The position numbers and the translations under genes are program-made. Below the pieces are notes generated by a model. That model was not told where the DNA came from. It saw only the letters and a program-made list of their open reading frames with translations, and ran no database searches. A stretch of 64,000 nucleotides of DNA, taken from NCBI GenBank assembly GCA_964016885.1, contig OZ024742.1, positions 306,466,001-306,530,000 on the forward strand, given 5' to 3'. Origin of the DNA: Eledone cirrhosa. Lineage: Eukaryota. Shown here piece after piece: positions 8,696 to 22,529 of the stretch (position 1 is its first letter; each line of letters begins with the position of its first letter).

Positions 8696-9109
8696 ATATA
8701 TATATATATATATTTGTGTATATAGAATTATACTTATGACTATATATATATATATATATATATATATATATACCGAAAACGATAAGTTGAAAAAAATGAA
8801 AACGAAAAACGAAATTTCATTTCTCACTCTTAGTATGGCACTTACTTAAATGTAAGTATGTATGTATACGTACATACATATATGTATACAGACGTACAGT
8901 AGCATGTATATATATATATATATATATATATATATATATATATATATATATACATACATGCAGGTACACATACATATATGCACGCATCAGTTTAGCAGAC
9001 GCTTATTATAGCGCTGCTTTGTTCGTTTGTCAACAAACTGAACAGCCTGAATTTATGCCATACGGTGTTAAGGCAACCACGTCACCTTTTTGTTCAACAC
9101 TGACACAGG

Positions 9110-9154
9110 AACGATGTACTAGTTTCAAGCTTGTTAGCTATCTTCAGCACCGTT
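9110..9154 (-). ncRNA. Type I hammerhead ribozyme (family B, CUGAAGA core)
   Basis: AACGGTG-CTGAAGA-tAGCT aaca AGCTt-GAAA-CTAG-TA-CATCGTT. Confidence 0.82.
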
Positions 9155-9578
9155 TACCCATCTGCCAGATAGTTGAACGTTCGAAAGTATATACTTTCCT
9201 TATGAAAATTAACGGCTGAGCAGCCTAATTTGCATATTGAGTGAGTTAAATCGGTCAGGCATACCGAAAACGATAAGTTGAAAAAAATGAAAACGAAAAA
9301 CGAAATTTCATTTCTCACTCTTAGTATGGCACTTACTTAAATGTAAGTATGTATGTATACGTACATACATATATGTATACAGACGTACAGTAGCATGTAT
9401 ATATATATATATATATATATACATACATGCAGGTACACATACATATATGCACGCATCAGTTTAGCAGACGCTTATTATAGCGCTGCTTTGTTCGTTTGTC
9501 AACAAACTGAACAGCCTGAATTTATGCCATACGGTGTTAAGGCAACCACGTCACCTTTTTGTTCAACACTGACACAGG

Positions 9579-9623
9579 AACGATGTACTAGTTTCAAGCT
9601 TGTTAGCTATCATCAGCACCGTT
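9579..9623 (-). ncRNA. Type I hammerhead ribozyme (family B)
   Basis: AACGGTG-CTGATGA-tAGCT aaca AGCTt-GAAA-CTAG-TA-CATCGTT. Confidence 0.85.
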
Positions 9624-9833
9624 TACCCATCTGCCTGATAGTTGAACGTTCGAAAGTATATACTTTCCTTATGAAAATGAAATTTCGTTTTTCGTTTTCA
9701 TTTTTTTCAACTTATCGTTTTCGGTATGCCTGACCGATTTAACTCACTCAATATGCAAATTAGGCTGCTCAGCCGTTAATTTTCATAAGGAAAGTATATA
9801 CTTTCGAACGTTCAACTATCTGGCAGATGGGTA

Positions 9834-9878
9834 AACGGTGCTGATGATAGCTAACAAGCTTGAAACTAGTACATCGTT
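9834..9878 (+). ncRNA. Type I hammerhead ribozyme (family B, inverted unit)
   Basis: Same motif on +. Stem I is extended by ATGGG/CCTGT, CTGGCA/TGTCAG and GTTCAAC/GTTGAAC. Confidence 0.85.
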
Positions 9879-17805: not shown

Positions 17806-17826
17806 TGACTCACGTTCTATGCAAAT
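17806..17826 (+). promoter_or_regulatory. AP-1-like TGACTCA and octamer ATGCAAAT in each family A monomer
   Basis: TGACTCA at 17806-17812 and ATGCAAAT at 17819-17826, repeating every 469 bp. The octamer is also kept in families B and C. Function is inferred only. Confidence 0.45.
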
Positions 17827-17880
17827 TAGTCTACCCACTACTAATTTTCATAGAAAAAGCATATGACGATATGTGCTTTT

Positions 17881-17978
17881 ACAATTCTCCAGAGAAGCCG
17901 GAAGATGGGTAAATATTGCTGATGAGATGTAATAACATCGAAACTAGTCCAATATTCCTGTCTGGCCCTCTGGAGAAT
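17881..17978 (+). ncRNA. Family A hammerhead with extended, bulged stem I (second copy)
   Basis: ATTCTCCAGAG pairs with CTCTGGAGAAT (11 bp) and AGATGGG with CCTGTCT. A TA(A) bulge precedes the AATATTG/CAATATT stem. Confidence 0.85.
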
Positions 17979-20900
17979 AGAGGAAATGTGTTTCCTTGAA
18001 AACTCGTATGACTCTAAAACCCGGTCCGCCTGTGTGGTTACATACAGACTAGCTGACACTCACTGTAAAGTGTCTAGTGAAAAGCTGAGTACATGTACAT
18101 ATGTATACATGTGTGTATTTATATGCATACTAATACTTCCGTATACATATGTAGATGTACACTTTAACTTAATTGTTTAAGCGTCAGTCATACAAAAGTG
18201 AGTTAGAAGCGAAACGAAATTTAATTTCGTTTCGTTATTTGTTTTTATCGTTTCCGCTGAACCGGTGCGTACAATGACTCACGTTCTATGCAAATTAGTC
18301 TACCCACTACTAATTTTCATAGAAAAAGCATATAACGATATGTGCTTTTACAATTCTCCAGAGAAGCCGGAAGATGGGTAAATATTGCTGATGAGATGTA
18401 ATAACATCGAAACTAGTCCAATATTCCTGTCTGGCCCTCTGGAGAATAGAGGAAATGTGTTTCCTTGAAAACTCGTATGACTCTAAAACCCGGTCCGCCT
18501 GTGTGGTTACATACAGACTAGCTGACACTCACTGTAAAGTGTCTAGTGAAAAGCTGAGTACATGTACATATGTATACATGTGTGTATTTATATGCATACT
18601 AATACTTCCGTATACATATGTAGATGTACACTTTAACTTAATTGTTTAAGCGTCAGTCATACAAAAGTGAGTTAGAAGCGAAACGAAATTTAATTTCGTT
18701 TTGTTATTTGTTTTTATCGTTTCCGCTGAACCGGTGCGTACAATGACTCACGTTCTATGCAAATTAGTCTACCCACTACTAATTTTCATAGAAAAAGCAT
18801 ATAACGATATGTGCTTTTACAATTCTCCAGAGAAGCCGGAAGATGGGTAAATATTGCTGATGAGATGTAATAACATCGAAACTAGTCCAATATTCCTGTC
18901 TGGCCCTCTGGAGAATAGAGGAAATGTGTTTCCTTGAAAACTCGTATGACTCTAAAACCCGGTCTGCCTGTGTGGTTACATACAGACTAGCTGACACTCA
19001 CTGTAAAGTGTCTAGTGAAAAGCTGAGTACATGTACATATGTATACATGTGTGTATTTATATGCATACTAATACTTCCGTATACATATGTAGATGTACAC
19101 TTTAACTTAATTGTTTAAGCGTCAGTCATACAAAAGTGAGTTAGAAGCGAAACGAAATTTAATTTCGTTTCGTTATTTGTTTTTATCGTTTCCGCTGAAC
19201 CGGTGCGTACAATGACTCACGTTCTATGCAAATTAGTCTACCCACTACTAATTTTCATAGAAAAAGCATATAACGATATGTGCTTTTACAATTCTCCAGA
19301 GAAGCCGGAAGATGGGTAAATATTGCTGATGAGATGTAATAACATCGAAACTAGTCCAATATTCCTGTCTGGCCCTCTGGAGAATAGAGGAAATGTGTTT
19401 CCTTGAAAACTCGTATGACTCTAAAACCCGGTCCGCCTGTGTGGTTACATACAGACTAGCTGACACTCACTGTAAAGTGTCTAGTGAAAAACTGAGTACA
19501 TGTACATATGTATACATGTGTGTATTTATATGCATACTAATACTTCCGTATACATATGTAGATGTACACTTTAACTTAATTGTTTAAGCGTCAGTCATAC
19601 AAAAGTGAGTTAGAAGCGAAACGAAATTTAATTTCGTTTCGTTATTTGTTTTTATCGTTTCCGCTGAACCGGTGCGTACAATGACTCACGTTCTATGCAA
19701 ATTAGTCTACCCACTACTAATTTTCATAGAAAAAGCATATAACGATATGTGCTTTTACAATTCTCCAGAGAAGCCGGAAGATGGGTAAATATTGCTGATG
19801 AGATGTAATAACATCGAAACTAGTCCAATATTCCTGTCTGGCCCTCTGGAGAATAGAGGAAATGTGTTTCCTTGAAAACTCGTATGACTCTAAAACCCGG
19901 TCCGCCTGTGTGGTTACATACAGACTAGCTGACACTCACTGTAAAGTGTCTAGTGAAAAGCTGAGTACATGTACATATGTATACATGTGTGTATTTATAT
20001 GCATACTAATACTTCCGTATACATATGTAGATGTACACTTTAACTTAATTGTTTAAGCGTCAGTCATACAAAAGTGAGTTAGAAGCGAAACGAAATTTAA
20101 TTTCGTTTCGTTATTTGTTTTTATCGTTTCCGCTGAACCGGTGCGTACAATGACTCACGTTCTATGCAAATTAGTCTACCCACTACTAATTTTCATAGAA
20201 AAAGCATATAACGATATGTGCTTTTACAATTCTCCAGAGAAGCCGGAAGATGGGTAAATATTGCTGATGAGATGTAATAACATCGAAACTAGTCCAATAT
20301 TCCTGTCTGGCCCTCTGGAGAATAGAGGAAATGTGTTTCCTTGAAAACTCGTATGACTCTAAAACCCGGTCCGCCTGTGTGGTTACATACAGACTAGCTG
20401 ACACTCACTGTAAAGTGTCTAGTGAAAAGCTGAGTACATGTACATATGTATACATGTGTGTATTTATATGCATACTAATACTTCCGTATACATATGTAGA
20501 TGTACACTTTAACTTAATTGTTTAAGCGTCAGTCATACAAAAGTGAGTTAGAAGCGAAACGAAATTTAATTTCGTTTCGTTATTTGTTTTTATCGTTTCC
20601 GCTGAACCGGTGCGTACAATGACTCACGTTCTATGCAAATTAGTCTACCCACTACTAATTTTCATAGAAAAAGCATATAACGATATGTGCTTTTACAATT
20701 CTCCAGAGAAGCCGGAAGATGGGTAAATATTGCTGATGAGATGTAATAACATCGAAACTAGTCCAATATTCCTGTCTGGCCCTCTGGAGAATAGAGGAAA
20801 TGTGTTTCCTTGAAAACTCGTATGACTCTAAAACCCGGTCCGCCTGTGTGGTTACATACAGACTAGCTGACACTCACTGTAAAGTGTCTAGTGAAAAGCT

Positions 20901-22529
20901 GAGTACATGTACATATGTATACATGTGTGTATTTATATGCATACTAATACTTCCGTATACATATGTAGATGTACACTTTAACTTAATTGTTTAAGCGTCA
21001 GTCATACAAAAGTGAGTTAGAAGCGAAACGAAATTTAATTTCGTTTCGTTATTTGTTTTTATCGTTTCCGCTGAACCGGTGCGTACAATGACTCACGTTC
21101 TATGCAAATTAGTCTACCCACTACTAATTTTCATAGAAAAAGCATATAACGATATGTGCTTTTACAATTCTCCAGAGAAGCCGGAAGATGGGTAAATATT
21201 GCTGATGAGATGTAATAACATCGAAACTAGTCCAATATTCCTGTCTGGCCCTCTGGAGAATAGAGGAAATGTGTTTCCTTGAAAACTCGTATGACTCTAA
21301 AACCCGGTCCGCCTGTGTGGTTACATACAGACTAGCTGACACTCACTGTAAAGTGTCTAGTGAAAAGCTGAGTACATGTACATATGTATACATGTGTGTA
21401 TTTATATGCATACTAATACTTCCGTATACATATGTAGATGTACACTTTAACTTAATTGTTTAAGCGTCAGTCATACAAAAGTGAGTTAGAAGCGAAACGA
21501 AATTTAATTTCGTTTCGTTATTTGTTTTTATCGTTTCCGCTGAACCGGTGCGTACAATGACTCACGTTCTATGCAAATTAGTCTACCCACTACTAATTTT
21601 CATAGAAAAAGCATATAACGATATGTGCTTTTACAATTCTCCAGAGAAGCCGGAAGATGGGTAAATATTGCTGATGAGATGTAATAACATCGAAACTAGT
21701 CCAATATTCCTGTCTGGCCCTCTGGAGAATAGAGGAAATGTGTTTCCTTGAAAACTCGTATGACTCTAAAACCCGGTCCGCCTGTGTGGTTACATACAGA
21801 CTAGCTGACACTCACTGTAAAGTGTCTAGTGAAAAGCTGAGTACATGTACATATGTATACATGTGTGTATTTATATGCATACTAATACTTCCGTATACAT
21901 ATGTAGATGTACACTTTAACTTAATATATATATATATATATATATATATATCTTAAGAAGTGCACAGCAGCCGAAGTGCATGATAAGGTTTTATCGGTAT
22001 AAATACACACTCTGTAACCGAGACTGCATCACACACACACATACTCACACACGCGCACACGCGCACACACACACACACACACGCACACGCACATACGCAC
22101 ACTCACACACAGACGCATATATATACATATATATATATAGAGAGAGAGAGAGGGAGAGAGAGAGAGATATGTATGGACGTACGGATGCCAAATTATGGTT
22201 CAATCGAATAATATTAAAAGGTTGCACACTTTCATATCTTTTTTATTCATGACGTTGTTTTTTAGCTAAGCTGTAATATATTGTCCTTTCTATTCACTTT
22301 ACTGACTCCAATGAGGAAACCACATGACAGGACGAATTGAAATATAAATAAGAGGGAGGAATACGTTCTAAATACACAATAATTGTTTCTATTTTAGGCA
22401 CACACAATAATATTAGTGTTAAGATAGAAATACTTTTCATGAATGATATGTATAACAGGAAACGGCCTCTTTTATCCTCTAGGGTATTTTTCCTTTGCTC
22501 CGCAACGGGATTAAGGAGGAACTGTTTCT

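Follow-up and report, generated by a model that had tools for sequence, protein, structure and literature searches.

Hammerhead retrozymes of Eledone cirrhosa with a putative U6-class promoter block and Penelope-like insertion ends

How short non-coding ribozyme repeats of animals are transcribed, and which enzyme moves them, is the question raised by a stretch of 64,000 nucleotides of the 3.0 Gb Eledone cirrhosa genome (assembly GCA_964016885.1, contig OZ024742.1, positions 306,466,001 to 306,530,000, forward strand), hereafter the window. This 64 kb window contains three dispersed tandem repeat families, A, B and C, each with a hammerhead ribozyme downstream of a conserved octamer, at the positions given in an initial annotation of the same DNA. 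On all features testable here, the elements are non-long terminal repeat (non-LTR) retrozymes, with cleavage and circular RNAs being predicted. As judged from sequence, families A, B and C are very probably mobilised by Penelope-like elements, and the block of POU site and TATA-like box that precedes each ribozyme can be taken with good confidence to be a promoter. For the full combination, a built-in U6-class promoter with Penelope-like copying into (TA)n, we see somewhat better than an even chance. The class is ordinary and the detail unusual: the promoter-like block adds to a known retrozyme kind. The initial annotation knew of no description of such elements, but tandem type I hammerhead repeats of this kind correspond to the non-LTR retrozymes treated in passages of published work (PMC7229834; bioRxiv 10.64898/2026.07.22.740005).

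The units measure 469 nt in A, 471 nt in B and ~438 nt in C, slightly long against the 150-450 bp given, in the sections consulted, for metazoan non-LTR retrozymes, which are tandem, carry type I hammerheads and occur with Penelope-like elements (Cervera and de la Pena 2020, PMC7229834). The unit body has 62-64% A+T (GC below 50%), and coding potential is confined to short simple-repeat frames in B, the A array having none in the open reading frame (ORF) listing. Family A consists of a right arm (17440..21925, plus strand) with 9.6 tandem units and 10 hammerhead cores, 5'-truncated and ending with a short 3' end in (TA)n, and an inverted left arm (17176..17413, minus strand) with a long 3' end in (TA)n; at the junction of the two arms (17408-17448) a 14-nt unit is repeated about three times, which resembles template slippage at the joint. 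Family B has a left arm on the minus strand (8770..9681), which spans ~1.9 of the 471-nt units, contains hammerhead cores at 9616 and 9147 and finishes with the long 3' end in (TA)n, and a right arm on the plus strand (9675..10117), which finishes with the short 3' end in (TA)n. In family C an inverted left arm (12029..12187, minus strand) has its short 3' end in (TA)n, and the rearranged right arm (12184..12903, plus strand), interrupted by another repeat at ~12730-12831, has its long 3' end in (TA)n. C occurs mostly as 1-1.5 units. The arrays lie on many contigs, with 456 matches for A and with 1314 and 2063 candidates for B and C, of which 40 were scored in each family.

All three families carry type I hammerheads with covarying stems. 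In the second unit of A, which serves as example throughout, the ribozyme with its extended stem I occupies 18356..18444 (plus strand; core from 18388, predicted cut after 18418); its counterparts lie at 9810..9896 in B (plus; core from 9841, predicted cut after 9871) and at 12544..12627 in C (plus; core from 12570, predicted cut after 12603). In A, B and C all 21 stem I positions pair, compared with 14.5 when the arms are swapped. Because there are only 6 arm permutations, three families alone give no significance, but across seven families 46 of 49 positions pair, the top value of 5040 arm permutations, and the covariation described in the initial annotation is thereby borne out. Stem II pairs at 24 of 28 positions. 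Pairs were counted by anchoring on the hammerhead core, a MAFFT alignment of nine hammerheads having misplaced family D (see below). The small UA/UG bulge and the paired extension of stem I noted earlier are both present in the predicted folds. A and B have a palindromic stem III of 6 nt, that of C being longer; for palindromic stems of this kind, cleavage as a dimer is reported in parts of the literature (PMC4209133, PMC7229834). Nine A copies match the Rfam family HH9 below threshold, at 31.8 bits against a gathering score of 52, among the 150 of 264 matches listed. A metagenome scan gave 28 matches, none with both stems and tandem copies, which we take as chance.

The initial annotation held that the three families differ widely. 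This does not apply to A and B, which can be aligned over the whole unit with 61% identity (z 17.7), and C is only weakly related to them (z 2.6 and 5.0). The ten boxes that had been listed as common to A and B are all there in the same order, and the A/B alignment has 7 exact runs of at least 9 nt where 2.2 are expected (column shuffles; 12/5000). Since A and B align end to end, these boxes reflect shared ancestry under constraint and not an independent blueprint. Beyond the promoter-like block, the remaining A/B boxes fall in the tail between two alternative 3' ends, which in A (18643..18717, plus strand) contains a T5 run as well as four of them, CATAC, AGTGAG, AATTTCGTTT and TTATCGTTT. Two boxes assigned to C fared worse: its ATTTTCA lies at unit position 49, past the TATA-like box, and is a different box from that at 26-27 in A and B, and GGCAG..GTAAA with a spacer has no match in C, where the window reads GGCAGGTAAA. 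A diversified lineage of ribozyme retroelements, with constraint on fold and upstream motifs, is supported, as proposed; its supposed old age does not agree with the copies, which are young, most of the 150 listed A matches being 99-100% identical across chromosomes.

The octamer can be compared with the promoters of the small nuclear RNA (snRNA) genes of the same genome. The U6 genes at loci L037, L038 and L039/L040 and the U6atac gene at L089 have the element TATG(C/G)(A/T)AAT(T/G)AG at -77 to -79 and a TATA box at -30; in the single RNase MRP gene (L142), checked afterwards as a prediction, they stand at -78 and -30. The 12-mer around the retrozyme octamer matches all five of these U6-type promoters (U6, U6atac and RNase MRP), and A (18287..18298, plus strand) is identical over 15 bases to the -78 element of L038. 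The 12-mer is found within 100 nt of the start at none of 28 U1/U2 loci (two carry one near -400), nor within 300 nt of the start at any of the 8 U5 loci (of 12) that were inspected. A matrix built from four U6-type sites ranks unit position 0 first, a score reached by 0, 2 and 6 of 200 shuffles of A, B and C, respectively. The host genes (L011-L044, L087-L089, L142-L150) fall into two classes by their proximal motifs, U1, U2 and U5, transcribed by RNA polymerase II (Pol II), sharing AATTAAAT near -89, TCAGT between -55 and -58 and, around -30, a TATA-like stretch, versus U6, U6atac and MRP, which are type 3 genes of RNA polymerase III (Pol III). A TATA-like box near -30 occurs in both classes, and many U1, U2 and U6 genes have in common a distal motif that resembles TTACCTCCCTT and lies at about -260 to -290.

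Around this element the units share further architecture. In A, the TAATTTTCATA box (18311..18321, minus strand) is a second POU-type site, an inverted copy with one mismatch that recurs in B and in the A subfamily A2, and is exchanged for another one-mismatch variant in B2, while C repeats the POU site; we also considered TAATTTTCATA as a U1/U2-type proximal element, and rejected this as host U1, U2 and U5 use other motifs. The block of B (9752..9803, plus strand) contains the POU site (9752-9763), TCAG (9769), the inverted site (9777-9787) and a TATA-like box from 9795, and that of C (12443..12528, plus strand) has POU sites at 12443 and 12476, TCAGT at 12493 and a TATA-like box from 12520. 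One family C copy (L062, 1740-1960) contains a POU-like module of ~33 nt about six times. Extended stem I begins 30 bases past the TATA-like box, which is where a transcript with the whole ribozyme must start, and between this predicted start and the short 3' end A, B and C have no T4 run, as opposed to 7 A4 runs.

A genome-wide search for the promoter element plus a hammerhead core, set up so that the cores of A, B and C were passed over, gave 3659 matches, against none for the reversed control. Among the 100 listed, 97 belong to A2, two to an old family, D, whose copies are ~67-88% identical to the query, and one to a B variant. As A2 and D were discovered through the promoter element they are not independent support for it, and the unselected control is given by hammerheads met by chance in the flanks of loci. 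In this control the POU site is present in a bystander family, G, and absent from the tandem families E (310 nt) and F, from seven minimal or palindromic Penelope-type motifs and from one copy linked to a B tail. The octamer linkage proposed in the initial annotation therefore holds for A, B and C without being a property of all retrozymes here. E and F (L057, 1-1070; L100, 1970-2400) share a set of conserved boxes of their own, one of them a TATA-like TTCTATAAG that precedes the hammerhead extension.

These controls bear on the possibility that there is no promoter at all, the elements being products of host-gene read-through, with the boxes retained as RNA structure, as sites of enzyme recognition or as POU enhancers. 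In the portions seen of a 2020 review (PMC7761336), retrozymes seem to be promoterless and their transcription is presumed to be passive read-through; the spread of E and F without the element would fit this, as would the location of the TATA-like boxes of A (from 18329, in an 11-bp hairpin at 18323..18348, plus strand), B and C in predicted hairpins, which may consequently be kept as RNA structure. We nevertheless consider it improbable, since A/B, C, D and G, although otherwise barely alignable, all have the POU site in a constant position ahead of the hammerhead; in A, B and C, moreover, the site is present in double or repeated form, and no pairing partner accounts for it.

The choice of polymerase is the weakest step of the proposal. 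The same elements, mobilised in the same manner, could instead use an snRNA-like Pol II promoter, with transcription passing through T runs and giving multimers directly, an alternative that we find possible though doubtful. In B, B2, C and D, TCAG precedes the TATA-like box by 26-27 nt, which is the geometry of host U1, U2 and U5; with Pol II the read-through problem discussed below disappears; newt satellite 2 offers a precedent, going by the part of PMC2220036 consulted; and a type 3 promoter able to recruit both polymerases is described in a passage of PMC11340601. Yet A has no TCAG and one B variant alters it, the match having in any case been spotted post hoc. Furthermore, a U1/U2 matrix fails to single out the site (its score is reached by 167, 32 and 9 of 200 shuffles for A, B and C, with significance in C alone), and the AATTAAAT element of about -89 is not at that place in the units, as inspected by eye.

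Several observations nonetheless weigh against a U6-class promoter. Among 20 U6 loci, the element is in place in 4, shifted by an insertion in 2 and missing from -78 in 14, and 5 of 6 U6atac loci are likewise without it there; we read those without it as retrocopies, with some circularity in the argument. In A, B and C the TATA-like box follows 42-44 nt after the POU site, versus 47-49 nt in all five host genes (D, with 48 nt, lies in the host range), and the distal motif of most host snRNA genes was unseen in the units on inspection by eye. The 12-mer is also an optimal POU site in itself, so that the match need not mean capture from U6. The location of the TATA-like boxes in hairpins and the amplification of E and F without the POU element, mentioned above, count here as well. 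With regard to termination, the lack of T4 runs is weak in each family (P 0.20, 0.10 and 0.41, A and B moreover being related), D has T4-5 right after the hammerhead, and the T runs of B before the next unit (T5, T4, T7, T4) should stop Pol III read-through, yet arrays hold whole units and the long 3' end of B lies past its T7 run. The idea that the long 3' end is itself a Pol III terminator was rejected for B on this last ground; the ends occur at TAT-type overlaps with the target.

The second part of the question, the mobilising enzyme, is addressed by the insertion form. Each family has two fixed 3' ends, at the following distances from the POU site: ~356-362 and 431 in A, 364-370 and 431-447 in B, and 266-272 and 304-310 in C. 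Nearly all of them run into (TA)n, the few exceptions joining (CA)n, (CAT)n or other sequence, whereas the 5' ends are scattered. All 16 two-armed insertions in which both ends were resolved (2 A, 5 A2, 6 B and 3 C) combine a long 3' end on one arm with a short one on the other, a count from which single-arm insertions, interrupted arms and locus edges are left out. The same rule is seen in 4 of 4 insertions of a Penelope-like family (L165-L167, L169), which is young, with copies ~99% identical, an 894-codon ORF and a minimal hammerhead. Features of this ORF match GIY-YIG/reverse transcriptase (RT)-type clusters in the Atlas, with clade motifs read by eye; Pfam and PDB comparisons gave no classification for the 894-residue product. 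An 11-mer that precedes the short end of this family is best matched in A, by 10/11, and in C, by 8/11, in each case exactly at the short end; B has no such match, a point against the proposal. The insertion form agrees with that described, in the portions consulted, for Penelope-like elements, with an inverted 5'-truncated arm, partial tandems, a one-ended tail and microsatellite targets (Craig et al. 2021, bioRxiv 10.1101/2021.04.23.441226).

These likenesses could also arise if the repeats were fragments of the terminal repeats of autonomous Penelope elements, and the derivation of retrozymes from pseudo-long terminal repeats (pLTRs) is indeed put forward in passages of a recent preprint (bioRxiv 10.64898/2026.07.22.740005), while satellites spread at the DNA level would be a further option. 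We regard both as very improbable. The units show no alignable similarity to 20 Penelope-like loci, from two or three families, beyond simple repeats and embedded B copies; and the hammerheads of these loci are of the minimal type, their flanks containing no POU site out to 250 nt. That insertions on many chromosomes have fixed 3' but random 5' ends points to retrotransposition, and not to spread as DNA. Divergence within and between arrays is 1.1 and 1.9 in A and 2.5 and 3.2 in B, small differences, and 0.36 and 19.5 in A2, where the figures come from one array with overlapping loci, some monomers being counted twice; this weakly shows that each array derives from a single template. As the arrays carry whole units including the promoter block, the template must have been a read-through multimer or a circle.

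The mechanism that we propose combines both parts. Transcription would start ~30 nt past the TATA-like box, at the 5' arm of extended stem I, and most Pol III transcripts would end at the first T run of the tail. Read-through into the next unit would yield two hammerheads, dimeric in A and B, which would release a unit-length RNA that is likely circular, the circle step being taken from the published retrozyme model as set out in parts of PMC7229834 and PMC7761336. A Penelope-like reverse transcriptase/endonuclease would then prime on both target strands, and by copying round the template it would bring the upstream promoter along. As a tentative extension, to which we give less than an even chance, the lineage may have captured an upstream promoter of U6 class from the host and kept it through ribozyme-cut circular templates, in at least four families and with two-strand Penelope priming.

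The closest known systems include the metazoan non-LTR retrozymes, which are likewise short non-coding tandems with a weak palindromic stem III, AT-rich and dispersed, and reported in a mussel in the sections consulted of PMC7229834. They differ in the promoter-like block, which retrozymes seem not to have according to the review passages cited above (PMC7761336), and in the fixed long and short 3' ends in (TA)n, which were not met in the passages of PMC7229834; in the portions consulted of the 2026 preprint on the retrozyme-Penelope link, the words promoter and octamer are absent (bioRxiv 10.64898/2026.07.22.740005). From Penelope-like elements, which they resemble in the form of their insertions, the retrozymes are distinguished by having no ORF, by full hammerheads with extended stem I instead of minimal ones, and by tails of ~37 nt (C) and 65-80 nt (A, B) compared with 30-40 nt in the sections consulted of bioRxiv 10.1101/2021.04.23.441226. 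Our literature search, which had Dfam, Repbase, subscription papers and supplements outside its range, turned up no description of this family and, among the papers listed, none on a mollusc U6 promoter.

Two hammerhead satellites with promoters of their own are cited in the part seen of PMC2220036, newt satellite 2, with an internal snRNA-type Pol II promoter, and a schistosome satellite, with an internal Pol III promoter. The present elements are like the former in being tandem hammerhead repeats with an snRNA-type promoter, and like the latter in having their own Pol III promoter, in both cases as a prediction. Newt satellite 2 is the subject of Coats et al. (1994), and its promoter reportedly includes an octamer plus a proximal sequence element (PSE); unlike this Pol II promoter, the element found here matches host Pol III type 3 genes and not U1, U2 or U5. 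The schistosome promoter (Ferbeyre et al., 1998) reportedly has tRNA-like A and B boxes within the transcript, whereas the elements here would sit upstream of the start and would be carried only by read-through. If true, this would be a strategy like that of short interspersed nuclear elements (SINEs) but with an external promoter, an upstream promoter being beyond what an ordinary Pol III retroposon can carry. The results bear on how animal retrozymes are transcribed and on what enzyme moves them, and now that a promoter element has been named, a start predicted and a partner element put forward as candidate, both transcription and mobilisation become directly testable. The fixed long and short 3' ends are genomic evidence for Penelope-type mobilisation that is independent of sequence homology, and, as a by-product, the U6-class and U1/U2/U5-class promoter motifs of this animal are defined, which is useful for small-RNA expression tools.

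Retrocopies of host RNAs were seen next to similar targets. At L093 (~1257-1620) the 5' end of a U6atac retrocopy is fused to an inverted piece of family C, and U6 or U6atac retrocopies at L084, L076, L077, L085 and L091 adjoin (TA)n or inverted repeat pieces; these junctions suggest that the same enzyme copies U6 and U6atac RNAs, with template switching. The window also holds Penelope-like remains. Two diverging arms lie between (TA)n tracts at 4494-7560, with a minimal hammerhead of the L165 family in the minus-strand 3' end (4591) and a broken RT-endonuclease frame (5466-7450), and further broken Penelope-like frames are found on the minus strand at 36230-38167, with a weak RVT_1 match, and at 39000-39647. 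A near-perfect palindrome of 308 nt (49560-49867) is made up of two short arms that diverge and carry minimal hammerheads (core at 49773), and gives rise to a spurious MIR9408 match. Finally, a 950-codon frame with RVT_1 and C2H2 zinc fingers (25291-28143, minus strand) is apparently an intact ORF of a non-LTR retrotransposon.

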